Virus record (IMG/VR): IMGVR_UViG_3300011113_000104
Span: 1 to 25,354 of that record
Direction: 5' to 3' (one strand)
Length of the DNA stretch: 25,354 bases
Source: a virus
Taxonomy: Duplodnaviria; Caudoviricetes
In this document: positions 3,439-23,317 of the stretch, piece by piece
Position numbering within the stretch: the first letter of the stretch is position 1
Layout: the number at the start of each line of letters is the position of its first letter
The notes under the pieces: generated by a model
Databases searched by the model: none
What the model was told of the DNA's origin: nothing
The model's input: the letters and a program-made list of their open reading frames with translations, nothing else
Made by a program: the position numbers and the translations under genes

Positions 3439-3581
3439 AACAAGGACTCTACTCTAACATCTGGGCCAAGCGTAAGCGGATAGCTGAGGGATCTGGTGAG
3501 AAGATGCGTAAGGTCGGCTCCAAAGGCGCTCCTACAGCTAAGGCATTTAAACAAGCTAAGAAGACTGCGAAGAAAAAATAA
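3435..3581 (+). CDS. 48-aa lysine-rich basic microprotein
   Basis: Not in the ORF track. ATGA overlap upstream and TAATG overlap downstream; MKQGLYSNIWAKRKRIAEGSGEKMRKVGSKGAPTAKAFKQAKKTAKKK. Confidence 0.75.
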   Translation: MKQGLYSNIWAKRKRIAEGSGEKMRKVGSKGAPTAKAFKQAKKTAKKK

Positions 3582-3826
3582 TGGTAAAGAAAGTATATCA
3601 GAACCCAGAAGGTGGCTTAAACGCCAAAGGCAGGGCATACTTTAAAGCTAAGGAAGGTGCTAACCTGAAGCCTCCAGTGTCATCTAAAGAGGCTGCTAAG
3701 TCTCCTAAGAAGGCAGCTAGGAGGAAGTCTTTCTGTGCTCGTATGAGTGGTGTACCGGGGCCTATGAAGGATGAGAAGGGCAGACCAACTCGCAAGGCTC
3801 TGGCATTAAGGAAATGGGATTGCTAA
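3581..3826 (+). CDS. 81-aa basic protein (DUF6321-like, RRKSFCARM...W.C motif)
   Basis: Translationally coupled ORF carrying GGLNAKGR, RRKSFCARMSG and RKALALRKWDC motifs. Confidence 0.7.
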   Translation: MVKKVYQNPEGGLNAKGRAYFKAKEGANLKPPVSSKEAAKSPKKAARRKSFCARMSGVPGPMKDEKGRPTRKALALRKWDC

Positions 3827-4483
3827 ATGGCAAACAAAACTTATCTAGAATTAGTTAATGATGTGTTAGTTAGACTTCGTGAGAACGAGGTTACTTCCGT
3901 CAATGACACTACCTACTCCAAGCTTATTAGCAAGTTTGTTAATGACGCTAAGAGACAGGTAGAGGATGCATACAACTGGAATGCACTGTCTGAGACCTTA
4001 ACTGTCTCTACCACGGCTAACTTGTTTAACTATGTTATGACTGGTGCTGGTATTCGATTCAGGATCTTTGACGTACTGAATGACACAAGTAACTGGTTTA
4101 TGGAGAATGCTTCTACCAGTGACATGAATAATTGGTTCCTTAATCAGGCTCCTGAGTTAGGTTCTCCTCGTTACTTTAACTTTAACGGAGTAGACTCTAA
4201 CGGAGACACACAGGTAGACCTATATCCGATTCCTAATGGTACATATACCCTTAACTTTAACATCATTAAACCACAAGCAGAGCTAGCACTAAACAGCACT
4301 CAGATCAAGGTTCCAGCAGAGCCAGTTATCTTCTTGGCCTATGCTAAAGCCTTGGCAGAGCGTGGAGAAGACGGTGGACTAAGCAGCTCTGAGGCTTACG
4401 GATTATATCAAACCTCCTTAGCAGACCATGTAGCTAACGAGGGCAACCACTATCCAGATGAATTTACTTGGGATGCTGTCTAA
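3827..4483 (+). CDS. Tail tubular protein A / head-tail adaptor (T7 gp11-like)
   Basis: N-terminal 'TYLELVNDVLVRLRE' helix, a size of 218 aa, and position immediately before the nozzle gene. Confidence 0.7.
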   Translation: MANKTYLELVNDVLVRLRENEVTSVNDTTYSKLISKFVNDAKRQVEDAYNWNALSETLTVSTTANLFNYVMTGAGIRFRIFDVLNDTSNWFMENASTSDMNNWFLNQAPELGSPRYFNFNGVDSNGDTQVDLYPIPNGTYTLNFNIIKPQAELALNSTQIKVPAEPVIFLAYAKALAERGEDGGLSSSEAYGLYQTSLADHVANEGNHYPDEFTWDAV

Positions 4484-6336
4484 TGGCTTCACCTTCGCAG
4501 ACCGCTAGTATTGCAGCACCGGGATTCTTTGGACTAAACATCCAAGAGTCTGCAGTGTCGTTGTCTTCTGGCTTTGCGCTAGAGGCTAACAACTGCGTCA
4601 TTGACCGCTATGGTCGTATTGGTGCTAGACGTGGCTGGACTCCTGTGAACTCTTCGGTTAATGCAGACTTAGGCGCTGCTAACCCAGTAGAGTTTATGTT
4701 TGAGTTAACTGACAACGGATCTAGTCAGTTCATCAGTGCTGGTAACAATAGACTGTTTACTGGTACTACTACTATGACTACTAGGGCTGTACGCAATCAG
4801 GCTAACAGTGCAGACCTAACATACACGATTACTGGTAACAACTGGCAAGGGGCTGCTATGCCCTACGGTGATGGTGTCGATGCAGAGCCTCATGCCTATC
4901 TGGTCCAGACTGGTCACCCTATGCTGGCCTACCATAGACTACCAAGTCCCGGCACGGGTGCTACTTTCACAGTCTCTACTGTCTCTAGCGGCGCTATCAC
5001 TGCCCTGACAGTAACTGCTGCTGGCTCAGGATACAATGTAGGAGACATCCTTACTCTGTCTGGTGGAACTACTGCTGCTACAGTCACTGTGGCTACCTTG
5101 TCTGGCACTGGTGTAGCTACTGTAACGATTACCACAGGTGGTGCTGGTTACTCTGTCTCTAACGCCCTGACAAGCACAGTGACAACCATAGCTAATCCAC
5201 ACTCTCACACAGGTTCATACGGCTTCCAGAGGCTTGGTGACATAGGGACAATGCCTACGGGGTATTCTGTTGGTGACTTCGCCCCTAACTGCGCTTTAGC
5301 GGCCTATGGACGTATCTGGGTAGCAGACATAGCAGGAGACCCACAGACGGTCTACTTTAGTCGCTTACTGGACGGATCAGACTTCCAAGGTGGGGACTCT
5401 GGTTCTCTGTCCTTAAACTCTGTCTTTCCTAACACAGACAAGATAGTAGCTATTGCAGCGCACAACGGATTCCTTATTATCTTTGGTCGTAATAACATTG
5501 CTGTATATGCTAATCCTGTGGATGTTACAACACTGGTCTTAGCAGACTTCATCCCTAATGTTGGTTGTATCGCTAGGGATTCTGTGCAGAGCACTGGTAC
5601 GGACATCATCTTCTTGTCTGACTCTGGTATCCGTAGTCTTCAAAGGGTTATTCAGGAGAAGTCTCTACCTATGCGAGATATCTCCAAGAATGTACGAGAT
5701 GACCTTATGTCTAGTGTGGCCTCTGAGACAGCGGCTAACATCAAGTCTGTTTACTATGATAGGGATGCCTTTTACCTCCTTAGCCTGCCTATCACCAAGT
5801 CAGTGTACTGCTTTGACATGAGGACTCCTTTGCAGGACGGGGCAGCTAGGGTGACTACTTGGACCAGTATTGAGCCTAAGTCCTTTATAGTGACTAACTC
5901 TAAAGACCTTTACATTGGCAAACCCGGATATATTGGTAAGTACTACGGTCATGCAGACAATGGGGCTGAGTATCGGTTTAGCTACTATACCAACTACTTT
6001 GACTTTGATCAACCCACCTTAGAAAAGATCATGAAGCAGATTGGCTTTGTGGTTATTGGCGGTTCTAACCAAAACGTGGCTGTCAAGTGGGGCTTCGATT
6101 ATAACGAAAATTACTTTGCTTTTACAAAAAGACTTGACACGGCAGTAGTTTACGAGTATAATATAGGTGAATATAATATTGCTGAGTTCTCAGACGGAAT
6201 TGTATTGGACAAGTTCAAGATACAGGCTGGAGGTACAGGCTCTGTTATGCAGATTGGACTAGAGGCTGAGATCAATGGTAACCCTATCTCTATTCAGAGG
6301 ATTGACGTATATATTAAACAAGGAAAACAAGCATGA
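4483..6336 (+). CDS. Tail tubular protein B / nozzle (P22 gp10-, T7 gp12-like beta-propeller)
   Basis: The true start is probably ATG 4483 (TAATG overlap) rather than 4468. Motifs include 'PGFFGLN', 'VGCIARDSVQ', 'IIFLSDSGIRSL' and 'DISKNV'; about 617 aa. Confidence 0.75.
   Translation: MASPSQTASIAAPGFFGLNIQESAVSLSSGFALEANNCVIDRYGRIGARRGWTPVNSSVNADLGAANPVEFMFELTDNGSSQFISAGNNRLFTGTTTMTTRAVRNQANSADLTYTITGNNWQGAAMPYGDGVDAEPHAYLVQTGHPMLAYHRLPSPGTGATFTVSTVSSGAITALTVTAAGSGYNVGDILTLSGGTTAATVTVATLSGTGVATVTITTGGAGYSVSNALTSTVTTIANPHSHTGSYGFQRLGDIGTMPTGYSVGDFAPNCALAAYGRIWVADIAGDPQTVYFSRLLDGSDFQGGDSGSLSLNSVFPNTDKIVAIAAHNGFLIIFGRNNIAVYANPVDVTTLVLADFIPNVGCIARDSVQSTGTDIIFLSDSGIRSLQRVIQEKSLPMRDISKNVRDDLMSSVASETAANIKSVYYDRDAFYLLSLPITKSVYCFDMRTPLQDGAARVTTWTSIEPKSFIVTNSKDLYIGKPGYIGKYYGHADNGAEYRFSYYTNYFDFDQPTLEKIMKQIGFVVIGGSNQNVAVKWGFDYNENYFAFTKRLDTAVVYEYNIGEYNIAEFSDGIVLDKFKIQAGGTGSVMQIGLEAEINGNPISIQRIDVYIKQGKQA
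6134..6162 (+). promoter_or_regulatory. Perfect sigma70 consensus promoter inside the nozzle gene
   Basis: TTGACA (6134-6139), 17-nt spacer, TATAAT (6157-6162); an A-tract lies upstream. Confidence 0.65.
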
Positions 6337-7004
6337 GTAACTATGTAAAAGCTACTAACTTTGCTGTCAAAGATGGCCTAGCCTCTGGCAACCCTTCTAA
6401 GATCATCAAGGGTACAGAGATTGATACTGAGTACAATGCTATTGCCTCTGCTGTGTCTTCTAAAGCAGACCTAAATAGCCCTACCTTCACAGGTACGCCA
6501 GCAGGCCCTACAGCTTCCTCTGGTACTAATACTACTCAGCTAGCCACTACAGCCTTTGTAACCACTGCTATAGCCGCTGCTACGGCTGCCCTAGTACCCT
6601 CTGGTATGATCATGATTTGGTCAGGCTCAGTAGCCTCTATACCGTCTGGGTGGACGCTCTGTAACGGATCAAACAGTACTCCAGACCTGCGGGATAAGTT
6701 TGTTGTAGGCGCTGGATCAACTTACGCTGTAGGTAATACAGGTGGTTCTGCAAATGCTGTTGTAGTAAGCCATACTCACACCGCTACAGTGACAGACCCC
6801 GGTCACTTACACTCAATAGCTGCTGGTAGAAATACTGGTGCAGGCTTGGTTGGCGGTGGTGGAAATGCGTTAGATGCTAATTTAACTAGCAACACAGGTT
6901 CTAACACAACAGGTATTAGTGTTGGAATTAGTACTACTGGCTCGTCAGGCAACAACGCTAACCTGCCACCGTACTATGCTCTTTGCTACATTATGAAGAC
7001 CTGA
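6333..7004 (+). CDS. Short tail fibre / needle protein with phage tail collar domain
   Basis: Collar motif 'PSGMIMIWSGSVASIPSGWTLCNGSNSTPDLRDKFVVGAG', HTH/HLH metal-site motifs and the 'NLPPYYALCYIMK' terminus. Confidence 0.8.
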   Translation: MSNYVKATNFAVKDGLASGNPSKIIKGTEIDTEYNAIASAVSSKADLNSPTFTGTPAGPTASSGTNTTQLATTAFVTTAIAAATAALVPSGMIMIWSGSVASIPSGWTLCNGSNSTPDLRDKFVVGAGSTYAVGNTGGSANAVVVSHTHTATVTDPGHLHSIAAGRNTGAGLVGGGGNALDANLTSNTGSNTTGISVGISTTGSSGNNANLPPYYALCYIMKT

Positions 7005-7288
7005 TGTATAAGTTTCCAGTAGTAAATAGACAAGAATATATAATGTACTTGGAGTTGTTTAGTAACTTATACTGGCTTCATACTGATGTGTTTAAGTGGT
7101 CAAAAGAAACAAAGAAACATTATATTAAAGATTTAAACCAGCTTCAATCACTACTCAATGCTCCTCTGTATGGCTTAGTAGATAATGATAAGTTAGGGAA
7201 GTTTGGAGAAACACTAGGTTTTAGATACATTAAAGACTTATTAGGGAATGACGGACAAATGTATAAGATATATACGAGGAGTTTATAA
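7004..7288 (+). CDS. Small GNAT-fold-like virion assembly protein (T7 gp13 / P22 gp14 position)
   Basis: Likely start at ATG 7004 (TGATG overlap). 'NDKLGKFGETLGF' resembles GNAT motif B, and the gene sits between the tail and ejection genes. Confidence 0.5.
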   Translation: MYKFPVVNRQEYIMYLELFSNLYWLHTDVFKWSKETKKHYIKDLNQLQSLLNAPLYGLVDNDKLGKFGETLGFRYIKDLLGNDGQMYKIYTRSL

Positions 7289-8328
7289 TGGGTAAGTTTA
7301 TTGGCGGTATAACTGATGCTGTAGGCTTAACAGATATCAAAGGCACACAGCAACGAGGAGAACAAGCCGCTGCTGCTCAACGTGAAGCTGCGTTAAGAGG
7401 TGCTCAGGTATCTGCATTTAGACCAGTCGGGATGACTTCTCGATTTGGTACTGGGCAGTTTGACATCACAGATGTTGGTGGTGTTCCTCGTGTTACTGGA
7501 GCCAGCTACACGGTAGCGCCTGAGCTACAAGCCCTACAGAACCAGATAATGGGTTTAACAGGAGGTGCTGTCACCACTGCTCAAGAAGCTCAGATGGCTG
7601 CTCAGCCTCTAGGGGCTGCTGCTCAACGGCTATTTAATCTTGGTGGTCAGTATATCTCTGAGTCTCCAGAGGCTGCTCGTCAGCGTATCTTTACTCAACT
7701 ACAAGAAGCAAGACTACCAACACAACTACAAGAAGAACAAAGACTAGCGTCTGGCGCATTTGGTCGTGGGCGTGCTGGTTTAAACATTGGTGGCATGGGT
7801 CAGCCTGAACTCTATACTTTGGCTCGTGCTCGTGAAGCACAACGTGCTCAAGATATTGTCTCAGCAGAACAGCAAGCACAGCAACAGGTTCAGTTTGGTG
7901 GTGGTTTATTTGGATTAGGCGCTCAACAACTTGGGCAGCAGTATGCTATCCCGACACAGGCTCTTGGTCCTCTACAGTCTTACCTCGGTACTGTTGGTAC
8001 TATTGAAGAGCTTGGTCAGCAACCGTTTAAACTAGGCTTACAAGTTGGAGGTGCTGCTCAGTCTGGCGCTAATGTTGGTTCTCAGTTATTGCAGTCTGGT
8101 TTGTCTAGTGCTGCTACTACTCAGCAGCGTGCTGGTGATGCTGCCTCTGCACAGCTTACTAACTTTATGAATCAAGCATTAGGTGCTGCTGTTGGCGGTT
8201 TTACTGGTGGTTTTGGTGGTTTTGGAGGAGGCGGGGGGCCTACAGTATATAGTGGATATGGAGCAACATCACCATATCAAGCTACGGGTAATCCATTTGG
8301 TTCTACATATGGAATGTTTAATAGATAA
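7288..8328 (+). CDS. Internal virion / DNA ejection protein 1
   Basis: G/A/Q-rich helical protein with a glycine-rich hydrophobic C-terminal segment; first of four large genes after the tail module. Confidence 0.65.
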   Translation: MGKFIGGITDAVGLTDIKGTQQRGEQAAAAQREAALRGAQVSAFRPVGMTSRFGTGQFDITDVGGVPRVTGASYTVAPELQALQNQIMGLTGGAVTTAQEAQMAAQPLGAAAQRLFNLGGQYISESPEAARQRIFTQLQEARLPTQLQEEQRLASGAFGRGRAGLNIGGMGQPELYTLARAREAQRAQDIVSAEQQAQQQVQFGGGLFGLGAQQLGQQYAIPTQALGPLQSYLGTVGTIEELGQQPFKLGLQVGGAAQSGANVGSQLLQSGLSSAATTQQRAGDAASAQLTNFMNQALGAAVGGFTGGFGGFGGGGGPTVYSGYGATSPYQATGNPFGSTYGMFNR

Positions 8329-8338
8329 GGACTAAGCT

Positions 8339-9151
8339 ATGGGAATGTCATCACAACAAATATTACAGAGTGATCCAGAGTATCTGCGTAGACAGATGGC
8401 TCAGCAAGAGATGCAACGTCTTAATCCTACAGGTGGTGCTGCAGGTGCTATTGGTGCATTGCTTGGCAGAGGTCTTGGAAATGTAGCTTCTGGACGTGGG
8501 TTCATGGATACTGGAGATGCAGGTCTTCGTAGGGTTTCAGAAGTTCAGCGTATCTTAAGTAGTGTTCCTTTTGATCCCCAGAATCCTGCAACATATTATG
8601 AATCAGTAGCTGCTGCTTTACAGCAAGGCGGTTATGGTGACTTAGCTCCTGAAGCTCTAAAGCAAGCAGCACAGGCAAGAACACAAGCTAAAGAACTTTC
8701 TCTAAGAGAACGTCAGATAGGTACTCAAGAAGCAGAAGTAGAGATAAAGAAAGCAAAAGCTACACAAGGCAATGTAACTAACTTTGTTACCAAGAAGGGT
8801 GATGCAATTATTGAAAAAGAAGGTAGGATGTATGTTCAGAAAGTTGATGATGATGGTGTAGTTTCTCTAGATCCTTATAAGAAAGCAATACATGGTGCGT
8901 TTGAAACTAAAGCAGATTATGCAGCAGCACAGGCTGCAGCAGGTGGAGTAGTTCGTCAGCCTATCGTTGACCCACGTACTGGCTTTACTACTGGGTACAT
9001 TATTCTTGATCGTAACGGAAATGAGATTCGCCGTGAGACATTTGGTGCTCAAGGTGCAGGCGCTGGTACGGCTCCTCAAGGAACTGGTGGTGGAGGCGCT
9101 GTGCCTAACATCTATCAACAAGAACTTGAAAGACGTTTAAAGAATAAATAA
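8339..9151 (+). CDS. Internal virion / DNA ejection protein 2
   Basis: SD AAGGA, a GxxxG-type segment (GAAGAIGALLGRGLG), a coiled coil, and synteny. Confidence 0.6.
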   Translation: MGMSSQQILQSDPEYLRRQMAQQEMQRLNPTGGAAGAIGALLGRGLGNVASGRGFMDTGDAGLRRVSEVQRILSSVPFDPQNPATYYESVAAALQQGGYGDLAPEALKQAAQARTQAKELSLRERQIGTQEAEVEIKKAKATQGNVTNFVTKKGDAIIEKEGRMYVQKVDDDGVVSLDPYKKAIHGAFETKADYAAAQAAAGGVVRQPIVDPRTGFTTGYIILDRNGNEIRRETFGAQGAGAGTAPQGTGGGGAVPNIYQQELERRLKNK

Positions 9152-10767
9152 TGGCTGAGATAAATCAATCTGTTTTAAAATCTCTATCTATATCTGACTT
9201 ACGAGCACTGTCAGAAGGTAATCTTGAGGCCGTATCTATACCAGCATTAAAGTTACTAGCTGGAGAAGAGTTTGGTACTGGAGAAACCTTAGCTCGTAGT
9301 GCTGAGCGTGGGGCTACTGGATTTATTCGTGGTGGTGCTGATGTACTACGTAAAGCAGGTATTGATGTAGGAGCTACTGAGCAGACTGGGGTTGTGCCAG
9401 AGGGTTATGTTGATCCGCTAACTGGTATGCTTGGTGCTCCAGTATCTCCTGAAACAACTAGCCTTGCTACTCCCGGTCAGCGTCAACTAACAGACTTTGA
9501 ACGAGAGCAAGAGTATAGAGCAATGCTTGAGCAAAGACCAGTAACTGCTATTGGTGGTTACTTAGCTGGTGCTATTGCAGGCGATCCTACAAACTTAGTT
9601 GCTTTTTCAGCTAAGACAGCACTGCAAGGTGCTAAGCAGTTAGGCGCATTAGGTGGCGCTCAAGCAGCTATTGAACCAGTATACGAAGAGTTTGGTGATT
9701 CTCGTCTTCGTAACATAGCCTTTGGTGCAGGAGGTGGTGCTGTCTTTGGTGCTGGCTTTGGCGCACTGGCTGGTAGGTTTGCTCGTAAGGCTGATGAAGC
9801 TGCTGCTAAGATGGAAGGTGATGTACCTGCTGTTACAAAGACCAGAGAAGAGATTGAGGCAGAGCTTCCTCCAATTACTCCAGTAGACCAGCAACCTACA
9901 CTACTGTCACGCTTACCTGATACAGACCAAGCTATAGTAGATAAGGTACTTGCTCGTTATGAGGACGTAGACTTATTACCAAATAAAGCATTTGACGAAG
10001 TAGCTGATGCTTTAGAGTCTACTAATCCACAAGCTGCTGCACTGTTTCGTGGTGCAAAAGAACCGCCAGATACTGTGGCACAGCAACAGGCTGCTCTACT
10101 AAAAGCAGACTTTGACCAGAAAGCTTCAATCAAAAGTGCAAAGGTTACTGACGATGCGTTTGCTGAGTCAAGTTCATACTTAAAAGCAGAGAAGACTGGA
10201 GATTACAGGGACTTCTTAACTGATCCTATTCGTAACTATCCTCTGTCTCCTACTCAGTTTGCTAAGATGATTGCTCCTGAGAACCCATTCAAGGGACAGA
10301 ATCTTAAGACCGCTCTATCAAGAGATGAGAAAATGACTGATGCTTTATCTCAACTTATTGGGCCAACCTTTGGTAGGTTTAACAGAGAGAAAGCAGCAAA
10401 GACTTGGGAGCAGGTAGAGATTAAAGGAGAGTCAGTTCCTTATGAGACTGTTGTCTCTGCATTTGTTAACCGTAAGCAAGAAGAGGTGCTAGGTGCGGAG
10501 CTTACATCCAAGATTTCAAAAGCACTTGCATCAGAATTAAACCAACTTGACCAATTAAAAGATGTAGCTAGGCTAGCTAAAGAGCAGAACAACGAAGAGA
10601 TGTACGCTTACATTGCTCAGAGGTTTGCTACTGTCAATGCCTTATCATCCTCACTTGATGGCAACATCAGTAATCTAGGACGTGCTCTGGCATATACTAA
10701 ACAGGTTAAGAAAATTATAAATTCAAACGGTACGTTACCACCGTATCTTGGAGGACTTAAGTGTTAA
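9151..10767 (+). CDS. Internal virion / DNA ejection protein 3
   Basis: 538 aa with glycine-zipper membrane segments (GGYLAGAIAGDPTNL; AFGAGGGAVFGAGFGALAG). Ends in ...GGLKC. Confidence 0.7.
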   Translation: MAEINQSVLKSLSISDLRALSEGNLEAVSIPALKLLAGEEFGTGETLARSAERGATGFIRGGADVLRKAGIDVGATEQTGVVPEGYVDPLTGMLGAPVSPETTSLATPGQRQLTDFEREQEYRAMLEQRPVTAIGGYLAGAIAGDPTNLVAFSAKTALQGAKQLGALGGAQAAIEPVYEEFGDSRLRNIAFGAGGGAVFGAGFGALAGRFARKADEAAAKMEGDVPAVTKTREEIEAELPPITPVDQQPTLLSRLPDTDQAIVDKVLARYEDVDLLPNKAFDEVADALESTNPQAAALFRGAKEPPDTVAQQQAALLKADFDQKASIKSAKVTDDAFAESSSYLKAEKTGDYRDFLTDPIRNYPLSPTQFAKMIAPENPFKGQNLKTALSRDEKMTDALSQLIGPTFGRFNREKAAKTWEQVEIKGESVPYETVVSAFVNRKQEEVLGAELTSKISKALASELNQLDQLKDVARLAKEQNNEEMYAYIAQRFATVNALSSSLDGNISNLGRALAYTKQVKKIINSNGTLPPYLGGLKC

Positions 10768-12653
10768 AAAACCAAGACGCTTGCAAGAAAGCTATTGATG
10801 CATATTTTGATGGGATTCGTGCAATAGATGGACTAGCTATTGATGAGGGCGCAAAGACAGCAATGAAAGCTAAGGCAACTAAAGAGGTTGCCACATCTCC
10901 CGGCTTTCGTCAGCGTATGTCTGAGATTGTAGTCAACTCATTTATCTCATCTGTTGGAACACCATTAGTAAACTTATACTCTACACTTGTTAAGGCTCCT
11001 TTCCTTATTGCTGAACGTGCATTGCTTGGTCTTATGCCGGGAAACAAAGTTAAACTAGGAGAGACCACTGCTATGATGCGTGGTTTCTTTGATGGTTTAG
11101 CAGAGGGTATTGGCTTTTTAAAAGCTGGATACAGTGAGGGAATGCCTTTAGATAAGACTTTAGTTGATACATCTACAGCGTTTGGCAGATCCGTATCTTC
11201 TGGACCTATTGAAAAAGCTATAGCTCCTATTGTCACAGTGCCTACTAAAGCTGCTGTTGCAGTGGACGAGTTCTCTAAAGCTATCTTCCGTAGGATGCAG
11301 CTTAATGCTAAAGCATATCGCATATCTCGCAGCGTCCCTGAAGGTAAACTTAATGGTAAGACCAGAGATGAACTATACGATTCTATTCGTACTATAGATA
11401 TCTCTGACCCAACCAAGGTAGGAGCTACTCGTGCATGGCAGGAAGAACTAAAGAAGGTATCTCCTGACTTAGCTGACGAGCTTATTAACTTTGCTAAGAT
11501 TCAAACCTTCCAGCAAGATTTAGGTGAGCTTGGCAACATGATGATTCGTGCTAAGACTAAAGTCCCTGAGCTTGTATTCATTGCTCCATTCATTAAGACA
11601 CCTATTAATATTCTAAAGGACGCTCTGTCCTATACTCCAGTTAGTCTTGCAATGAAACAATTCAAAGGCAAGAAGGACGAGGCAGCAGCACGTATGCTGT
11701 TAGGTGCTGGGCTAGGATTGATGACTGCCAAATCTGTAATGGATGGTAACTTAACTGGTAGTTATCCTAAAGATCCGGGACGTAGAGAGGCGATGATTGC
11801 TGCAGGTATTCCTGAATACTCTATGAAGATTGGTGATCGTTGGTATTCTTATTCACGCATTGAGCCTTTGGCTACTGTCTTGGGTATTACTGCTGACGGT
11901 GTGGAGACAATGATTGACTACCTTCGTTTACCAGATCCAGAAAAGAAAGCTGAGAAACTAGCAGTTGATTCAGTACTTGCAATCACAAAGAACCTAACTT
12001 CTAAAACATTCCTTGAAGGTATCACTGGATTCCTACAGGCTGTCCACGATCCTGAGAGATATGGTGGTTCATATATCAATAGCTTTGCAAGCGTATTGGT
12101 TCCGGGTGCTGTAGCTCAGTTTGCCCGTGGTGCAGACCCTGTTATGCGAGAGATCAATAGTTTTAGTGATGCCTTGCAAAACAGACTGCCCGGATTAAGA
12201 ACTACTCTGCCTGTTAAGTATGATATCGTAGGAGAAGCTAGAGAGAATCCTTCATATGGGTTGATGGGTACATTTGGTATTGCTACTAAAGAAGCAGCAC
12301 AAACACCATTACAGAAAGCCATTGATGATGTTGGCTTTACATATACTAAACCAGAGAAGAAGATTCGTGGTGTAGAACTAGATGCTTCTACTTATGAGAA
12401 ATACGCTAAGACATCAGGACAACTGATTAATGAATTACTAACACCAATAGTTGAAAGTCCTGAGTTTAATAACTATACCAAAGAACAAAAAAGATTTATC
12501 ATGAAACGAGTAGCAGAGCGTGGTAGATTAGCCGCTACTAACATTATGTTTGGTGAGAAGATGTCTTCAGATCCTGAGTTCGCTACTGAGTTCCGCAGAC
12601 AAGTCTTGAAGAAACGAGGAGTAAGGGCAACCGAAGAAGACTTGGAGGATTAA
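10761..12653 (+). CDS. Internal virion / DNA ejection protein 4 (large polyvalent protein, LPD38-like C-terminus)
   Basis: GTG start with SD GGAGG at 10750-10754. Motifs 'PFIKTPINI', 'WYSYSRIEPLATVLG' and 'NLTSKTFLEGI' are typical of large podovirus core proteins. Confidence 0.7.
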   Translation: MLKNQDACKKAIDAYFDGIRAIDGLAIDEGAKTAMKAKATKEVATSPGFRQRMSEIVVNSFISSVGTPLVNLYSTLVKAPFLIAERALLGLMPGNKVKLGETTAMMRGFFDGLAEGIGFLKAGYSEGMPLDKTLVDTSTAFGRSVSSGPIEKAIAPIVTVPTKAAVAVDEFSKAIFRRMQLNAKAYRISRSVPEGKLNGKTRDELYDSIRTIDISDPTKVGATRAWQEELKKVSPDLADELINFAKIQTFQQDLGELGNMMIRAKTKVPELVFIAPFIKTPINILKDALSYTPVSLAMKQFKGKKDEAAARMLLGAGLGLMTAKSVMDGNLTGSYPKDPGRREAMIAAGIPEYSMKIGDRWYSYSRIEPLATVLGITADGVETMIDYLRLPDPEKKAEKLAVDSVLAITKNLTSKTFLEGITGFLQAVHDPERYGGSYINSFASVLVPGAVAQFARGADPVMREINSFSDALQNRLPGLRTTLPVKYDIVGEARENPSYGLMGTFGIATKEAAQTPLQKAIDDVGFTYTKPEKKIRGVELDASTYEKYAKTSGQLINELLTPIVESPEFNNYTKEQKRFIMKRVAERGRLAATNIMFGEKMSSDPEFATEFRRQVLKKRGVRATEEDLED

Positions 12654-12654
12654 T

Positions 12655-13092
12655 ATGAGCGAAGTTACTGGGGCTGCAAAAGCAGCAGTAGCTGGTATTC
12701 GTGAAGCGTTAGCAGTAGGTAAAGAACTAGAGTCAGTTACCAAAGACATACAAGAACTAGGTAAAGCTGACCTTCAGGCCAGAGCATCATTCAGACGTAA
12801 ACAAAAACAAAGACCATCAGATACCTCTGTCTTCTCAGCGGTAGAAGAATGGCGTGGGGTCTACGAGATTAAGAAGATAGAAGAAGAACTAAAACAAGAC
12901 ATCATATCTAAGCACGGTGAAGCTGCTTGGGAGGAGGTCTTAGTAATTAAGGACAGAATCCTGAGAGATAACAAGGATCTGACTGACGAGTATGGCAGAG
13001 ACCTTCACAAGCTAGCCATGCTCAAGTGGTACTGCTTCATAACTGCTTTCGTATTGGTTAGCTTTTTCTACGTACTTGGATACAAACCTTAA
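12655..13092 (+). CDS. Coiled-coil protein with C-terminal TM helix, lysis-cassette associated
   Basis: SD GGAGG; C-terminal 'WYCFITAFVLVSFFYVLGY' TM segment; directly upstream of the holin. Confidence 0.65.
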   Translation: MSEVTGAAKAAVAGIREALAVGKELESVTKDIQELGKADLQARASFRRKQKQRPSDTSVFSAVEEWRGVYEIKKIEEELKQDIISKHGEAAWEEVLVIKDRILRDNKDLTDEYGRDLHKLAMLKWYCFITAFVLVSFFYVLGYKP

Positions 13093-13101
13093 GGACTGTC
13101 T

Positions 13102-13587
13102 ATGATTACCCTATTTTCTACCCTTGTCTCCTTCTTGGCTGGTGGTCTGCCTAAGTTCCTAGACTTTTTCCAAGATAAGTCTGATAAAAAACACGAATTA
13201 GAGCTAGCCAAATTGCAGATGGCTAGGGAATTGGAGATGGCAGAGAAAGGGTTCCTAGCTCAGGCTAGGGTGGAGGAGATTAGGACTGACCAAATTGCAA
13301 TGCAGACTGCAGTTCAGGAGAAGGAAGCCCTCTATGCCCACGATATAGCCATAGGGCAGGGAGCTAGCAAGTGGGTCATAAACCTGAGAGCCAGCGTTAG
13401 GCCAGTCATTACCTACGGTATGTTCTTAATGCTGGTGATGGTCAATGTGTTTGGGTTCTTCTACGCTTGGAAGCAGAATGTTCCATTTGATCAAGCTCTG
13501 AACCTGCTCTGGGATGAGGACTCAGCCATCATCTTCTCGTCTATCATAGCATTCTGGTTTGGGTCACAGACATTCAATAAGAAATGA
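13102..13587 (+). CDS. Holin (3TM, GTA-holin-like)
   Basis: 'LRASVRPVITY' and 'IIAFWFGS' motifs, three hydrophobic segments, and an ATGA-type overlap region with the lysozyme start. Confidence 0.75.
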   Translation: MITLFSTLVSFLAGGLPKFLDFFQDKSDKKHELELAKLQMARELEMAEKGFLAQARVEEIRTDQIAMQTAVQEKEALYAHDIAIGQGASKWVINLRASVRPVITYGMFLMLVMVNVFGFFYAWKQNVPFDQALNLLWDEDSAIIFSSIIAFWFGSQTFNKK

Positions 13588-14075
13588 AAGTATCCAAAGA
13601 ATGCATCGAGATGATAAAGCACCACGAAGGGGTAAGGACACGCAGCTACAGATGTCCAGCTCTGTTGTGGACCACGGGGGTTGGTCATGTCATAGACCCC
13701 AACCATATCAGGGTTCCTTTTGAGGAGCGTAAAAACCTCGCAATACCCAGTGGGTGGGATAGAACTCTGTCTATGGCAGAGGTTGATGACATACTTGCTA
13801 AGGATCTCCTCACGTTTGAGAGAGGTGTACTACGACTGTGTCCTACTAATCTTACTCAGTCTAGGTTTGATGCACTCGTCAGCTTTAGTTTTAATGTGGG
13901 ACTGGGTAACCTCCAGCGTAGCACAATAAGACAGAAGCATAACAGGGGTGAGTTTGAAGGGGCTGCAGAAGCTTTCATGCAGTGGACGAAAGCTGGAGGA
14001 AAAGTCCTTCCCGGCCTTGTTAAGCGCAGGAAGGATGAAAGCACACTCTATTTAAAAGTTGATAAGAATCCGTAG
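13584..14075 (+). CDS. Endolysin, GH24 phage lysozyme
   Basis: 'IKHHEG...YRCPALLWTTGVGH' (E-X8-C-X5-T triad), 'FDALVSFSFNVG' and 'GKVLPGLVKRR.E'. Confidence 0.92.
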   Translation: MKVSKECIEMIKHHEGVRTRSYRCPALLWTTGVGHVIDPNHIRVPFEERKNLAIPSGWDRTLSMAEVDDILAKDLLTFERGVLRLCPTNLTQSRFDALVSFSFNVGLGNLQRSTIRQKHNRGEFEGAAEAFMQWTKAGGKVLPGLVKRRKDESTLYLKVDKNP

Positions 14076-14177
14076 GAACGCAAAGTCTACTACAATATAT
14101 CGTTCTTCATCATCTACAACTTCTACATACTCAAAACCAAACATCAATCCAGATATAATACATAGGTCTATATTCAT
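14052..14177 (-). CDS. 41-aa hypothetical protein, last gene of the minus-strand arm
   Basis: Not in the ORF track. ATG 1 nt after the RNR stop; MNIDLCIISGLMFGFEYVEVVDDEERYIVVDFAFLRILINF; overlaps the lysozyme 3' end by 24 nt. Confidence 0.6.
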   Translation of the reverse strand: MNIDLCIISGLMFGFEYVEVVDDEERYIVVDFAFLRILINF

Positions 14178-14178
14178 A

Positions 14179-16068
14179 TCAAATCTCACAGTGACCTGCG
14201 ACACACGCTAATGTCTGTGCGCCTTCGACATTGTCATCTTCTTCCTTGAGGTTCTCCCACACAATATCTGTAGGCATCTTAGATAGAAGCTCTTCATACT
14301 GCTCTTTAGTACACTCCTCATAAGGAGCTTGTCGATAAGAACCACCATCCCAAGGTAGGAATGAGATACCACTAAGCTCATCGAAGTTCCTCCATACCCA
14401 CGCTCCTACGTCCATCCACTCATCTTCCTTGACAGAGATAGTCACTGAAGGCTTGTGCTCACACCAGTGACGCTGGTACATCAACCACAGGTCAAGGTGT
14501 TGCATAGCTGTTAGGTCATCACGAGTACGAGAAGACTCTGGTGCTTTCACTGGGAAAGAAAACACAGCAGTGCTATCAGGTCTCATGACACAGTCCTCTG
14601 TAGGAATACCAGAGTCTGTGAGGAACTTGGTCAGCGGGTCTTTCTTGTCACCACGAACACGGCGAATATAATAGTTACTATGTCGAGTATGAATACCAGA
14701 GGCAGAATTAACAAGTTGAGAAACAGTGCCGCTAGGTTTGACACAAGTAATCGCAGCAGACACAGGGATTCCCAAGCGAGTTGCAAACTCATTGTTGGTA
14801 TTAACTGAGACCTCCCGTAAGTATTCAAGAGACTGCGTAGTGCTTTCACATACCCTCCCCATCCAAGGATTATCTAAGATACCAGTTAATGATACACCAA
14901 GTAAACGCTCATCCTCAGTGTTCTTTTGCCACACCTTACGCAGGTATGGGAAGTGCGTCAGAGTGCTCTGGAACGTGCCTAAGATTGTAGCAACCCTAAC
15001 CTTCTTAGCTATGTCAGCTACAGTGTCCTCTGCGCGTACTACTACTTCAGTCAGGTTACAGAACTGATAAGGGCGCAGGATAATCTCTGAGCATGGGTTC
15101 GTACCAAAGTCATAGCTAGCATCTCTGCGTCCGTTCTTCTCAGCCTGAGTCTTGCTTGCCTCTCGTGAGAAGATACCCCGCTCACCTGAGTGACTGTTGT
15201 ACAGGCTAGTCCACTCTGCAAGGAACTGACCAATATCAGGCTTCGAGGTATAGGCTGCAGAGTTATTAGCCAATGCTCTCTGACTGTTATGCTCCCACCA
15301 GCTACCAGACTTACAGGAACGCATACGGTCATCCTCAAGGTCCGACAAAGAAATCATTGCGCTTCGTCTAACTCCACCCACAACAACAACTTCCCCGATC
15401 TTGCAGAGAAGATCATGACATTCGATTGATGTGAGTTTGCGGCCAGCTGCTCCTCTAAATTTGTTGGTAGTAAACTTAAAAAGCTCGTCCAAAGGTCCGG
15501 GTCCAGAAGCCCTTCCTCCGAAAGTTTTAAGCCTAGCTCCGGCAGGTCTAATTTTGGATAGGTCATACCTTGCCACTTCCCCAGAGTATAGAAGAGCGAT
15601 GAGTTGGCGAAGAGCCTTTGCCCATCCTTCTTTACTGTCCGCAACCACAATAGTAGTCTGACTATCAAACAACTGGTCTGGGACTTCAGGTAACTGATCA
15701 ACATACTTATGCTCCACAGAAAAGCCTACGCCTGTGCCACAGAGTAGGATGTACATCGCCTCATCGAATGCTTTAGGGTCATCGATAGGTAGATAGCTAC
15801 AGTTGTAGCCAGCAGTGTTGTCACGATCCAGTGCCTTACCTGCTGTCATGATAGCCCTCATAGATGGCATAACATCTAGGTTCTTGACAGCGTTGACAAG
15901 CTCTGCTCGTAGCTCAGCATCAGGTGAGAACTTATACTTCTCATCCAGATGATTAAACATAAAATTAAAGTAGCGGTCTACTGATTCATCCCAGTGCTCA
16001 CGCCGATTCTTCTCAGGTAGAAACCTGCTGTAACGACTCTTTGCAATAAACTGCTGATAGTAATCCAT
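14179..16068 (-). CDS. nrdJ: Class II (adenosylcobalamin-dependent) ribonucleotide reductase
   Basis: GYNCSY, VVVGGVRRSA, TNPCSEI, KPSGTVSQL and EHKPSVT motifs, and a C-terminal redox pair CVAGHC; no beta-subunit gene is adjacent. Confidence 0.93.
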   Translation of the reverse strand: MDYYQQFIAKSRYSRFLPEKNRREHWDESVDRYFNFMFNHLDEKYKFSPDAELRAELVNAVKNLDVMPSMRAIMTAGKALDRDNTAGYNCSYLPIDDPKAFDEAMYILLCGTGVGFSVEHKYVDQLPEVPDQLFDSQTTIVVADSKEGWAKALRQLIALLYSGEVARYDLSKIRPAGARLKTFGGRASGPGPLDELFKFTTNKFRGAAGRKLTSIECHDLLCKIGEVVVVGGVRRSAMISLSDLEDDRMRSCKSGSWWEHNSQRALANNSAAYTSKPDIGQFLAEWTSLYNSHSGERGIFSREASKTQAEKNGRRDASYDFGTNPCSEIILRPYQFCNLTEVVVRAEDTVADIAKKVRVATILGTFQSTLTHFPYLRKVWQKNTEDERLLGVSLTGILDNPWMGRVCESTTQSLEYLREVSVNTNNEFATRLGIPVSAAITCVKPSGTVSQLVNSASGIHTRHSNYYIRRVRGDKKDPLTKFLTDSGIPTEDCVMRPDSTAVFSFPVKAPESSRTRDDLTAMQHLDLWLMYQRHWCEHKPSVTISVKEDEWMDVGAWVWRNFDELSGISFLPWDGGSYRQAPYEECTKEQYEELLSKMPTDIVWENLKEEDDNVEGAQTLACVAGHCEI

Positions 16069-16071
16069 ATA

Positions 16072-16236
16072 TTATTCTTCCCAGTTAACTAAGTTTTGTA
16101 ATCTGTCTGCTTGGTCTTCTATTATATCTTCAAATCTTTCTACTATATCCTCAGACCTTAACGCTAGTTCTTCAACTAATGTTATCTCATCCCACCTCTT
16201 CAGTCTTTCCTTGATCTCTTCTAATGTTAGGGTCAT
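16072..16236 (-). CDS. 54-aa acidic helical hypothetical protein
   Basis: Not in the ORF track. MTLTLEEIKERLKRWDEITLVEELALRSEDIVERFEDIIEDQADRLQNLVNWEE fills the gap between DUF3310 and nrdJ. Confidence 0.7.
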   Translation of the reverse strand: MTLTLEEIKERLKRWDEITLVEELALRSEDIVERFEDIIEDQADRLQNLVNWEE

Positions 16237-16238
16237 AT

Positions 16239-16267
16239 ATTATATCACACCTTGTAATACTTGTCAC
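16239..16267 (-). promoter_or_regulatory. Sigma70 promoter upstream of nrdJ
   Basis: On the minus strand: GTGACA, 17-nt spacer, TATAAT, with an extended -10 TG. Confidence 0.6.
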
Positions 16268-16595
16268 CAACTTTATCATAATTTTCTATTAAGAACTCAA
16301 GATAATGCTTGGCCTTCTCAAGGTCTTGCTTGCCTGCCTTCTTACGATGACGAGCTACATACTTAATTACATTACACGCCCAAGGGTCTAAGCCCCAATA
16401 TAGGAACACATCCCAAGGCTCGATGTTAGACTTGTAATGATCGCCTCCAATCTGCTTAGACTTGATGTAGTCACCTAGTGTCTTGACATCTACACTGGTA
16501 GCCCTATCAAATGCTTGGTCTACATTGTGTAAGTTGATTGGTTCAAGTTGCTGTACCCTGTACCAGTCTGAAGGTGTTGCGTTATCAATGCTCAT
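16245..16595 (-). CDS. DUF3310 (SaV-like) domain protein
   Basis: 'KQIGGDHYK', 'NVIKYVARH.KK.GKQDLEKAKHYLE'. Confidence 0.85.
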   Translation of the reverse strand: MSIDNATPSDWYRVQQLEPINLHNVDQAFDRATSVDVKTLGDYIKSKQIGGDHYKSNIEPWDVFLYWGLDPWACNVIKYVARHRKKAGKQDLEKAKHYLEFLIENYDKVGDKYYKV

Positions 16596-17352
16596 ACTTC
16601 TTCCTTAAGTAGTTAAGACTAACTGGCATCTCATCGAAGCTACCATTGTTGACCTCGTGCAGCATCCAGATACCACGCCAGTACTTGTTACCTTGGCTAC
16701 CTAGATAGTCCTCGTCATGCAGGTAGCAACAGCCACTAAACAAACCAGTAATCTGTGAACCATCAGCACGATTAGCATAAGCTATCTGTCTATTCTGTAC
16801 ATGGCCCATCACTGCAGACATATGCTTCTTAGACAGCAGAGCAGCAGCAGAAGTTACAGCACGCCCCATAACGCCAGAAGTAAAATAATGAGCATACACA
16901 ACACCATCAATGACAATAGGTTCAAGGTACGGTATAACTTCCCAACCACAATGTTCGTAGTTAAGGTCGCTGAGACCAATAGTTCCATCCAGTTTAGGGT
17001 CTCCTTCGATAGCTCTGGAAATTCTTTCTTCATGATTTCCAAGAGTGAGTACCATTCTTGGTTTGTATTGTTTCTCCTTGTTCCGCTTTGCTCGTTCATT
17101 GTATTCCTTGATTGGTGCTAGCAACATCTCCATTGCTTTGTTAGTAACATCGATGTCAGTCTTGTAGCGTCTGCCTTCAAAACACTTACGGCCTACATCG
17201 TAGCTCGACAGGCTAGGCATATCAGCAAAGTCACCAATCTGTACAATAACATCAGGCTTCTTCTCTGCAAGGTACTTACCTACCCATGTCAGGTAACTAA
17301 GATCAACACCGTCCTTAACTTGGCAGTCAGGGATTATGGCATGAACAGTCAT
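16585..17352 (-). CDS. Calcineurin-like metallophosphoesterase
   Basis: DxQ (IIPDCQ), GDFAD, LGNHE, H and GHxQ metal-binding motifs in canonical order. Confidence 0.87.
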   Translation of the reverse strand: MTVHAIIPDCQVKDGVDLSYLTWVGKYLAEKKPDVIVQIGDFADMPSLSSYDVGRKCFEGRRYKTDIDVTNKAMEMLLAPIKEYNERAKRNKEKQYKPRMVLTLGNHEERISRAIEGDPKLDGTIGLSDLNYEHCGWEVIPYLEPIVIDGVVYAHYFTSGVMGRAVTSAAALLSKKHMSAVMGHVQNRQIAYANRADGSQITGLFSGCCYLHDEDYLGSQGNKYWRGIWMLHEVNNGSFDEMPVSLNYLRKKYEH

Positions 17353-17654
17353 TGTGCGTCCTTGTCTTCGTTGTCTAGTGGTTCTACTTTAGCAGTGGCG
17401 ATGTACTGCTCTGGGCCAATTGTCTCAAACAAACCATCAGTCTCCATGCCATATGGGTCTTTGATTACAACACGCTCCATGACTCCACTGTAACCAGAGG
17501 TCTCTAAGAACTTACAGAATTCATAGAGTATCTTAGGCCATGCAACGAAGTCTGCAAAGTAGTGACGAACCTTGACAGTTGAAGCCTCTGGGTATTCTGT
17601 AGGCTCTCCTTCCTGAAACTCAGAATCATAAATGAATCGATAAACTTTACTCAT
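17349..17654 (-). CDS. Hypothetical protein
   Basis: 101-aa ORF overlapping its neighbours by a few nt; SD AAGGAG. Confidence 0.7.
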   Translation of the reverse strand: MSKVYRFIYDSEFQEGEPTEYPEASTVKVRHYFADFVAWPKILYEFCKFLETSGYSGVMERVVIKDPYGMETDGLFETIGPEQYIATAKVEPLDNEDKDAQ

Positions 17655-17988
17655 ACTTACTCCTTAATAGATTAAAGAAATACTCTGCGTCTACCACAGC
17701 CAAGGGCTTATCTCTGTTTTGTTTGATGATGCAAACAGGCTCGTATCCTCCTGCGTTTCCTCTGGCTTGTTCGTAATAACCGTATACTGAGATAGCTGCT
17801 CTGGACTTGCATTCCAAACTAATTGGCAAGACCCGTCTGGCTGCTGGACTGAGTAGCAAATCCTCCCCGGAGACGCCCATACTAACTGAGCGAACATCGT
17901 CTGCCTCCAGATTGAACTTGGCTAGTATTAGATCTCTTACCCACTTTTGCAGGTGTCTTCCTTTGGACTTGGCGCTGCTCGGTTTCAA
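17647..17988 (-). CDS. Holliday junction resolvase-like PD-(D/E)XK nuclease
   Basis: 'SAKSKGR.LQ', 'GED' and 'SLECK' motifs; TTG start with an AAGGA SD. Confidence 0.72.
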   Translation of the reverse strand: MKPSSAKSKGRHLQKWVRDLILAKFNLEADDVRSVSMGVSGEDLLLSPAARRVLPISLECKSRAAISVYGYYEQARGNAGGYEPVCIIKQNRDKPLAVVDAEYFFNLLRSKYE

Positions 17989-18238
17989 GTGTTATATCCT
18001 TTCTCACTTTAATCCACTGCTTAGGTAGATGCATACGGGCATTGCTGTTGTCCATAGAGACTGTATTAGCAATGCACAGTGCGTCATCTGTTTCATCAAT
18101 AATCCACCCAATGCTGTGACAAAGGTGAACCTCTGCTTTAACATCCTCTTGCCATTCCACATCTGCTACTGCGTCAACCCACTGGATGTACTGCAAAGGG
18201 CAGGTGACCAAATCTGGTTTTCGTTTCTTCGTATCCAT
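17882..18238 (-). CDS. Hypothetical protein (IxWxDA...CxSIGW family)
   Basis: The core 'YIQWVDA...CHSIGWIIDETDD' fills the gap between the exonuclease and the resolvase; the start is uncertain. Confidence 0.6.
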   Translation of the reverse strand: MDTKKRKPDLVTCPLQYIQWVDAVADVEWQEDVKAEVHLCHSIGWIIDETDDALCIANTVSMDNSNARMHLPKQWIKVRKDITLETEQRQVQRKTPAKVGKRSNTSQVQSGGRRCSLS

Positions 18239-18870
18239 AACAATTGTCCATTCTCCAAGACTCTAGTTTCATCGTTGTCGTATGCTTCGAGTACTGCTTT
18301 GTACATATCGGCTTCGGTAATACAGTCCTCTAGAATCTTTGCCGCCTTCTTTGGACCTATTCCTTTTAGACCTATAATGTTATCAACTCTATCGCCAGTC
18401 AGTAACTGCATATAGAAATGTTTGATAGCTTGTTGGTCATCAATCAGGTACTTCGTATCCTTAATAAAGTTGTAGTGCCAACCACGAATCATATCAAGGT
18501 CTTTGTCGATGGACATGATGATATATTCTTCGATGTCTCCAATCTCATAAGCCTTGATACCTATAGCGTCATCAGCTTCCTGCCCCTCTACTACTTCACA
18601 GCCCCACGCTTTCTCAAGATACTCTCGAATCAATGCATAATGTTTAGGTTTAGTACCAACTCGATTACCTTTGTATGGTGCTGTTACTGCGATGTCCTTT
18701 CGGTAGTTGTTGGAACCAGTGAGATAACCTTGGTAGTCTCCTACCCAAGGCTTCATCACTAGCTCCTCCATAAACTCAGCACATCGTGCCAAGCACAGTT
18801 TGTCATTAACATCTTCGGAAGCGAATCCAATTCTGTAAGTGACGATGTCGGCATCGATGAGTGCTAACAT
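18166..18870 (-). CDS. 5'-3' exonuclease / RNase H (T7 gp6-like)
   Basis: LIDAD, YKGNR, EADD, SIDKDL, GDRVDNIIG and the H3TH GIGPK motif. Confidence 0.9.
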   Translation of the reverse strand: MLALIDADIVTYRIGFASEDVNDKLCLARCAEFMEELVMKPWVGDYQGYLTGSNNYRKDIAVTAPYKGNRVGTKPKHYALIREYLEKAWGCEVVEGQEADDAIGIKAYEIGDIEEYIIMSIDKDLDMIRGWHYNFIKDTKYLIDDQQAIKHFYMQLLTGDRVDNIIGLKGIGPKKAAKILEDCITEADMYKAVLEAYDNDETRVLENGQLLWIRRNENQIWSPALCSTSSGLTQ

Positions 18871-19103
18871 TACTTCTTCAGAAACGCAGCCATAGCTTCG
18901 AGTGCCTGTGCTGCTTGCTTCTTACTGGAGAACTCGTTGTCGTTGATAGTTACAGAACCATCAGAAGACACAGAGAACTTGAAGAAGTCTGAACCCCATA
19001 CTGTATGATTAAGTCCATCAACCTCTACCTCAAACACAGACTCTACTGGTGACACCTTGAAGTTAAACTTAGGTGACGGGGATGTTGCTTTCTTTGCTGT
19101 CAT
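18870..19103 (-). CDS. Hypothetical protein
   Basis: 77-aa ORF, SD AAGGA, TAATG coupling to the exonuclease. Confidence 0.7.
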   Translation of the reverse strand: MTAKKATSPSPKFNFKVSPVESVFEVEVDGLNHTVWGSDFFKFSVSSDGSVTINDNEFSSKKQAAQALEAMAAFLKK

Positions 19104-19114
19104 ATTATATCCTT

Positions 19115-19129
19115 TAGATAGTTATCTAT
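19115..19129. repeat. Palindromic element TAGATAGTTATCTAT, copy 1
   Basis: Intergenic, between the ssb stop and the next SD; arms TAGATA/TATCTA. Confidence 0.8.
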
Positions 19130-19528
19130 TTATAGTACGTTGTCATCGGCAGTAGCGTCTGCACCTGCATACTCAATCAGCTTGGTGACAGTTAGCTTGT
19201 TGATGCCAGCACTAACACCGCTCTTACCATTCTTGTTGTAAGCATAGGGTTTGATCAGCGCAATGCCTCGTGATCCATTGGCTACTTTGCAAGTGACCCT
19301 GTTACCGTCTGCATCAACAGTGGTGATAGGATAGTTCTTAGACTTAGCAGTAATGAAAAAACCTTTTTCTTCTTTATTGCGAACTGAGATACCAACTTCT
19401 TCCAATGCCTTAATAGCAGGCTTGGATAGGTTGCACAGGTCTACCTGATACTTACCCGACATCTGATTAGGGGTATCAAGAAATGCCCACATTAAATCAG
19501 CTTCAATCTTAAGAGGTTTTAAATCCAT
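19130..19528 (-). CDS. ssb: Single-stranded DNA-binding protein (T7 gp2.5-like)
   Basis: 'WAFL..PN.MSGKYQVDL' and 'VANGS' motifs, an acidic C-terminal tail, and position between polymerase and exonuclease. Confidence 0.7.
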   Translation of the reverse strand: MDLKPLKIEADLMWAFLDTPNQMSGKYQVDLCNLSKPAIKALEEVGISVRNKEEKGFFITAKSKNYPITTVDADGNRVTCKVANGSRGIALIKPYAYNKNGKSGVSAGINKLTVTKLIEYAGADATADDNVL

Positions 19529-19574
19529 AATGTTCTCCTGAACAAGTTAAGTTAAAAGTTACAGCTACCATAAT

Positions 19575-19602
19575 ATTATAGCACATCAGTGTAGTTTGTC
19601 AA
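19575..19602 (-). promoter_or_regulatory. Sigma70 promoter upstream of ssb
   Basis: On the minus strand: TTGACA, 16-nt spacer, TATAAT, with an extended -10 TG. Confidence 0.75.
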
Positions 19603-19789
19603 TATCCTCCTGTTTCACCTTATGAAATGTTGCCATCATCAGGGCAGTACTGAAGATGGATTGTAGTTCGTCCATGTCCTGAACTGAAGTCTTCATATGG
19701 ATAGTCTTGTCCTTACGTACACAAAGGAGGACAACATCTTCCATCCCTTCCCAGAACTCGTCTGTCTTATCTAGTGGGTGTTTGCCCAT
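19586..19789 (-). CDS. Hypothetical protein
   Basis: 67-aa ORF overlapping the polymerase 3' end; AAGGA SD upstream. Confidence 0.6.
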   Translation of the reverse strand: MGKHPLDKTDEFWEGMEDVVLLCVRKDKTIHMKTSVQDMDELQSIFSTALMMATFHKVKQEDIDKLH

Positions 19790-21429: not shown

Positions 21430-21435
21430 CCTAAT

Positions 21436-21444
21436 ATTATATCA
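21436..21444 (-). promoter_or_regulatory. Extended -10 promoter directly before polA
   Basis: TGaTATAAT on the minus strand, 6 nt before the ATG; no recognisable -35. Confidence 0.55.
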
Positions 21445-23025: not shown

Positions 23026-23317
23026 TGTTCTTCTCCTCATGTTCACGTTTTGCCGTTTCATCAACACGTTCTTGGCTTATGTTTACGGCATCGACATCAG
23101 GGGTAACTTCAGGGGTGCAATAGTTAGGTTTACCCCCGCAGTAAGACTTGACTGGCGGTTTTTCTTCCTGCGCTAGTGCTTGGCGTAGTGCTTCTTGTGC
23201 TTCCTTCCCAATACAAGCAAACCTCCATCCAAAATTAGCGCAAGGGTCTGTCAAACCATCTTCCCAAATGTCTAGGGCTTGCAACGCTAAATCTGCTGCT
23301 TTGCGTAGGTCAGCCAT
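23018..23317 (-). CDS. Hypothetical modular early protein
   Basis: Likely start ATG 23317 (SD AGGAG); MADLRKAADLALQAL...LRQALAQ. Confidence 0.65.
   Translation of the reverse strand: MADLRKAADLALQALDIWEDGLTDPCANFGWRFACIGKEAQEALRQALAQEEKPPVKSYCGGKPNYCTPEVTPDVDAVNISQERVDETAKREHEEKNNG

Follow-up and report, generated by a model that had tools for sequence, protein, structure and literature searches.

The question raised by this locus is why two adjacent genes of a virus carry their only cysteine (Cys) residues at the ends that face each other. The virus record IMGVR_UViG_3300011113_000104 (25,354 nucleotides (nt), the whole of which is referred to here as the window) carries its structural genes on the plus strand, while the minus strand encodes a T7-like replication module. 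The genes in question, here called A (538 amino acids (aa)) and B (630 aa), are the last large genes of the ejection operon downstream of the tail genes. The reading favored here, with moderate confidence, is that a disulfide replaces the lost peptide bond of a split internal virion protein, and that it is made by spontaneous oxidation in the released particle and not in the host periplasm.

The open reading frames (ORFs) 7288-8328, 8339-9151, A and B together contain two Cys in 1784 aa, where approximately 18 would be expected from the mean of the 23 window ORFs (1.03%). One is C538, the last residue and sole Cys of A, encoded by TGT followed by TAA; the other is C8, the sole Cys of B, encoded by TGC. 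A recount of the sequence reproduced exactly the number and the facing positions given in the original prediction made from this DNA. The chance of two randomly placed Cys landing in the last 8 and the first 12 residues that flank one of the three junctions was 1.8e-4, for windows of residues that were picked post hoc. The Shine-Dalgarno-like GGAGG (10750-10754) lies 6 nt upstream of GTG at 10761, and an in-frame TAA occupies 10758-10760, all as previously claimed for a real two-gene arrangement; B is inferred to start at this GTG. Each of the 80 rows in an alignment of B has one Cys, located in the C8 column in 79. The four ORFs had all been described as ejection genes. This description is backed by family evidence for A and B as internal virion proteins, whereas the two upstream ORFs are so placed by position: ORF 7288-8328 had no Pfam or PHROG match, and ORF 8339-9151 had a weak match to PHROG 16389 (function unknown).

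The identity of A and B was investigated with family, genome and structure searches. A matched PHROG 342 and B matched PHROG 6651 (internal virion protein), with the E values listed in Table 1. In tblastn searches B matched 55 phage records, many annotated as IVP-D (internal virion protein D), with 22-33% identity, while A matched none of 50,697 phage records and no cultured representative of it was found. As the original prediction anticipated, fused homologues exist: 29 one-piece proteins of 1051-1230 aa, with 36-50% identity to B, have an A-like first half and a B-like second half, and A matches the N-terminal half in 29/29. The GRAL and E..VNS.IS motifs, described in the original prediction as occurring in one polypeptide elsewhere, were confirmed together in these fused relatives. 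A profile search returned more than 12,000 cluster representatives at E 1e-30, the best 150 of which were nearly all long one-piece proteins, a ranking that the profile itself favors. The AlphaFold2 model of B (from the 80-sequence alignment; predicted local distance difference test (pLDDT) 75, predicted template modeling score 0.69) is nearly all-helical, with a helix at residues 6-23. Foldseek comparison with predicted viral structures gave internal virion proteins and large polyvalent proteins as best matches, among them a pelagiphage internal virion protein (E 1e-15, template modeling score 0.67). Because of the family matches and the one-piece homologues spanning both, A and B are predicted to be the halves of a gp16/IVP-D-like internal virion protein. 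Like members of the T7 gp16/IVP-D family, they stand at the end of the ejection operon and have a helical fold with N-terminal hydrophobic segments, and B matches IVP-D of T7-like pelagiphages, roseophages and cyanophages. T7 gp16 differs in being one 1318-aa chain with an N-terminal lytic transglycosylase, whereas A and B are two chains, and Pfam and PHROG scans of A gave no match to a lytic domain. As candidates for entry into the inner membrane, A has three conserved low-charge hydrophobic segments, one of which reaches a Kyte-Doolittle value of 1.5, and B has weaker ones. B had no Pfam match at E 0.01 and so was not assigned to LPD38 (PF18857); that domain was seen only in a cluster neighboring it in feature space (0.96). 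Searches of solved structures by sequence gave chance-level matches only.

The distribution of Cys in relatives separates split from one-piece forms. Among the 120 matches listed for B, 105 were B-sized, and 97 of these had a single Cys, which lay among the first 12 residues; the remaining 8 had no Cys, but B's N-terminus was absent from them. The 15 long proteins among the 120 were Cys-free. All 58 A-type homologues (31,571 residues in total), four of them first pieces of the three-piece forms described below, had exactly one Cys, located in the last two positions. The near one-piece proteins matching both A and B were Cys-free in 29/29 cases, 16 Cys were scattered over the 87,777 aa of 58 longer proteins, and another 142 representatives had 21 Cys in 198,349 aa. 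At the level of loci, 139 viral loci were examined. A locus scan with one protein (P0231) as sole query gave no match, and an alignment-based scan did. Both Cys were present in the 77 split loci, with no other Cys in B, and the 45 loci classed as one-piece had none in the stretch reaching 60 residues upstream and 40 downstream of the junction position; the latter class includes a few distant loci that start elsewhere (such as L087, L114 and L117). Thus, the expectation that the pair is kept in split homologues and absent from fused ones was borne out. Fifteen loci were uninformative (13 without B's start and 2 cut by a contig end). The two exceptions had deletions at or beside the junction: in L020 (near 6010) a frameshifting deletion of approximately 55 nt lies shortly past the intact Cys codon of B and both Cys codons are kept, and in L132 (near 4555) a deletion of approximately 79 nt spans the second junction. 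These deletions are either assembly errors or defective variants. The fused Cys-free relatives occupy the same gene slot as the split pair.

The positions of the two Cys were compared with the backbone of the one-piece proteins by counting residues along the path between two landmarks, the G of GRAL and B's conserved E55. In the window this path is 76 residues long when followed through C538 and C8. It was 75-77 residues in all 10 split pairs that could be measured (12 examined), regardless of the position of B's Cys (residue 7, 8 or 9), and the same path was 73-77 residues in the one-piece proteins (22 measurable of 31 examined). Adding the chains end to end gave 82-84 residues. Since the path lengths agree through the Cys pair and not end to end, both Cys appear to sit where the one-piece backbone runs, in register with the lost peptide bond, B's first residues being surplus. 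The match is evidence, at the level of sequence, for closeness of the two Cys.

A second break provides a replicate of the pattern. In 18 complete three-piece loci (5 + 13), Cys are found on both sides of each of two breaks. The middle piece (approximately 200-214 aa) carries a single Cys close to either end and corresponds by homology to the C-terminal part of A; A of the window has no Cys at the internal position equivalent to the second break. Two three-piece loci, L134 and L128, adjoin neighbors near-identical to those in the window (89-99%). Compared with window positions 4468-14075, the nozzle-like protein, small ORF, first ejection ORF and lysis proteins were 91-99% identical in L134 and 89-96% in L128, and the A/B cassettes only 25-36%. 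Because near-identical neighbors flank a divergent three-piece cassette, the A/B cassette appears to be swapped as a unit, and two- and three-piece cassettes to be interchangeable. Trees were built from the B core with the first 45 profile positions (the junction) removed; 382 cores were reduced to 197 representatives at 70% identity, of which 83 were used in FastTree and sets of 40 and 43 rows in IQ-TREE. The trees require four changes of the split or fused state, each forced by well-supported branches. With a distant one-piece outgroup, split clades included at least two one-piece lineages (P0123; P0121 with P0122) that had lost both Cys. The three-piece forms were a single clade (95/93), adding one more event, and all five changes coincide with gain or loss of a Cys pair.

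A structural precedent is available from cyanophage A4, where electron cryomicroscopy of the pre-ejectosome in mature particles identified a disulfide between gp27 Cys1715 and gp26 Cys5 (PMC12002296; PDB 9K2V). The record of Anabaena phage A-4L was taken as A4, with which it agrees in gene numbering, lengths and Cys positions; in it, C1715 (of 1717) and C5 are the only Cys of gp27 and gp26. As in the window, A4 has four ejection genes, the last two with a single Cys at facing ends, although its proteins are much larger (gp27, 1717 aa; gp26, 1114 aa). The portion of the A4 account covered here reports one bond, without connecting it with the splitting of genes, with fused relatives or with further phages (PMC12002296). 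A terminal Cys pair mentioned in the original prediction for epsilon15-like phages was indeed present: gp16 of epsilon15 has its single Cys at 629 of 634 residues and gp17 at 5, and the pattern was found in eight relatives chosen to span hosts from the best 40 of 132 records matching gp17. In this set, which includes phiV10-like phages, BcepC6B, VP2, Skadi-3 and Ab31, 9/9 phages had one Cys among the final 8 residues of the upstream protein and one at position 5-12 in its downstream partner, the upstream Cys lying 4-7 residues before the end and not at the last residue as in A. Gp17 of epsilon15 has been placed in the IVP-D family (PMC4819975). The term 'cys' is absent from the main text of PMC4819975, and no published note of the epsilon15 pair was found. 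A profile of A matched Skadi-3 gp29 with a marginal E of 2e-8 in a 22-protein set. In Acinetobacter phage MD-2021a (L148, 3177-3434) an 85-aa Cys-free gene separates the Cys-tipped partners; gene adjacency is not required. The internal proteins of epsilon15 (L122, 11586-14669) are not all Cys-free, since gp14 has Cys2 and gp15 two internal Cys. The large virion proteins gp50 (L123, 5038-8205) and gp51 (8356-9873) of LUZ24 are wholly Cys-free, which agrees with the one-piece forms.

Phage assembly occurs in the reducing cytoplasm. There A and B would dock non-covalently, and the facing Cys probably go on to form an inter-chain disulfide, as suggested by the Cys rule and the A4 precedent. By analogy with A4 this bond likely closes in the particle after lysis, because in A4 the bond is there before the host is contacted and because the compartment of assembly is reducing. 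The claim that it acts as a backbone substitute, holding the halves together in packing and during unfolded passage through the tail, is made with a little less assurance than either step but is still judged probable; the disulfide would keep A and B one-to-one and ordered as they unfold and travel as a single chain through the narrow tail. A's conserved hydrophobic segments (residues 134-207) precede the junction by approximately 330 residues, and the T7 gp16 model places the region past the first membrane segment in the cytoplasm (PMC8954989). The location of the junction C-terminal to these segments, combined with the T7 model, points to a junction on the cytoplasmic side after ejection. 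In the cytoplasm of the next host the bond could, speculatively, be reduced, so that the link would be reversible.

Several other explanations of the Cys pair were weighed. That gene overlap produced the Cys ending A, the sequence NTG-YTA-A forcing TGY before the stop and the rest being chance, is scarcely credible. The 7-nt overlap of the window clade does force TGY before the stop whenever B begins with Met-Leu; however, a distant clade (approximately 27% identity to B) has a TAATG overlap and retains both Cys, and other loci have a short intergenic gap with a penultimate Cys. The upstream Cys is the last residue in 61 loci and the penultimate in 17, encoded by TGT in 55 and TGC in 23. Furthermore, B's Cys is outside the overlap and the second break of the three-piece forms has its own Cys pair. 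The pair persists across overlap geometries and the artefact was rejected. Also rejected were an A-B fusion by frameshift or readthrough (the TAA at 10758-10760 blocks an earlier slip, geometry varies between clades and no shared slippery run was seen), a split intein as the source of the terminal Cys (no Hint domain match), and a lipoprotein Cys (no signal peptide or lipobox, and only 7 mostly polar residues before C8 of B).

The main rival accepts the disulfide and makes it a static staple of the packed core, one that aids assembly or shelf life but plays no necessary part in threading the halves out together. This is the description given for the A4 bond (PMC12002296), disulfides stabilize other parts of virions, and the split/fused rule is explained almost as well. 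A stabilizing bond could lie anywhere on the interface, however, whereas the Cys are found only at chain ends in register with the one-piece backbone and are nearly absent elsewhere in the family, and the static staple is accordingly considered unlikely. The original prediction went further and had the halves leave the particle unlinked and be joined in the oxidizing periplasm, possibly by DsbA, to give a redox-gated DNA channel. Its inter-chain bond is retained here as likely; the DsbA-made periplasmic gate is unsupported, as the sole observed bond of this type, in A4, is present before host contact. Ejection proteins do cross the periplasm, and one discussion suggests that phages may need host DsbA for their disulfides while also allowing spontaneous oxidation, but the junction is C-terminal to A's hydrophobic segments. 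Moreover, Cys-free fused relatives fill the same slot, so that a redox switch is not needed for function. Joining in the periplasm is improbable on these grounds. More doubtful still is a metal ion, such as zinc, shared by the two thiols between the chains with no disulfide. It would work in the reducing cytoplasm during assembly, and a conserved Asp follows C8 of B by five residues (67/80 rows), but there is no conserved His or further Cys near either end and the A4 density was modeled as a disulfide (PMC12002296).

Several points weigh against a disulfide that replaces the lost peptide bond. The five events on the tree are the true sample size, and swapping of cassettes between phages, or recombination, may distort the tree itself. 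Many loci are near-copies, with approximately 20 split lineages left at 70% identity. Residues 1-9 of B are below pLDDT 50 in the model, and a low-charge hydrophobic stretch at residues 65-83 of B makes the topology after ejection uncertain. The A4 authors present the gp27-gp26 bond as stabilizing and not as a tether (PMC12002296). Hidden Markov model and hhalign comparisons detected no sequence homology of A and B with A4 gp26 and gp27, and the A4 precedent therefore carries over by pattern only. The hhalign probabilities of A and B against the epsilon15 pair, 1.5% and 7.8%, were not significant.

A bond of this type has been published once, for A4, and was treated there as a local detail. 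A literature search that left subscription journals and supplements uncovered found only the A4 case and no statement of a split/fused Cys rule. Term searches of the available text of PMC8954989, PMC10172136, PMC13434306, PMC13576161 and PMC13730344, and of the bioRxiv reports 10.1101/2025.06.11.659172 and 10.64898/2026.09.03.749273, likewise gave no such rule. New here are the gp16/IVP-D family, the three-piece replicate, the register comparison and nine deposited epsilon15-like phages. A covalent end-to-end link would be a concrete answer to the question of how several ejection proteins exit the capsid through a narrow tail in the proper order and ratio. Such a tether would also explain why ejection genes are found as one, two or three pieces, and predicts that phages with it are sensitive to reducing or anoxic conditions; the pattern further gives a simple sequence criterion by which ejection genes of uncultured phages can be recognized and put in order. 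Only tentatively can it be widened to short-tailed phages as a whole: injected proteins would be nearly Cys-free, a gene break would bring a terminal Cys pair in register, and the resulting disulfide-linked thread could be cut in the cytoplasm of the next host, the backbone substitute permitting split, re-fusion and swap.

Table 1. Features of the split gene pair and the two ORFs upstream of it in the window.
Feature	Position	Strand	Basis
Cys-free Gly/Ala/Gln-rich ORF, 346 aa, likely gp14-like ejection protein	7288..8328	+	Position only
Cys-free ORF, 270 aa, likely gp15-like ejection protein	8339..9151	+	Position only
A, predicted N-terminal half of gp16/IVP-D-like internal virion protein	9151..10767	+	PHROG 342, E 2.3e-8; N-terminal half match to one-piece proteins
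A, Gly/Ala-rich hydrophobic segments	residues 134-152, 156-174, 189-207		Family hydrophobicity
A, GRAL helix	residues ~510-525		
SD-like GGAGG, TAA and GTG start of B	10750..10763	+	Sequence; B overlaps end of A by 7 nt
A, C538 codon	10762..10764	+	Invariant, 52/52 aligned rows
B, predicted C-terminal half of gp16-like protein, almost all-helical, basic	10761..12653	+	PHROG 6651, E 4e-40
B, C8 codon, start of first predicted helix (6-23)	10782..10784	+	Alignment and model

The genes of the structural region are arranged in the order adaptor, nozzle-like, collar, small ORF, two ORFs, A, B and lysis genes. The small ORF (6983-7288) occupies the slot of the epsilon15 GNAT-like gene (gp13) ahead of the ejection genes and had no family match. 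The TTG start listed for 4468-6336 adds Cys at positions 3 and 4; in close relatives the start lies five codons further on, which makes a true start near 4483 likely. An 81-aa DUF6321 protein (3581-3826) ends in Cys (C52 and C81), and the next ORF is Cys-free, leaving no facing partner. Scans for promoters and terminators across 6900-14300 gave results close to the level of shuffled sequence. The minus-strand replication module (14179-23067) encodes a class II ribonucleotide reductase, exonuclease, single-stranded DNA-binding protein, family A polymerase and primase-helicase; the best cultured match of the polymerase is from a pelagiphage (50%). The module converges on the structural genes, a layout like that of LUZ24.

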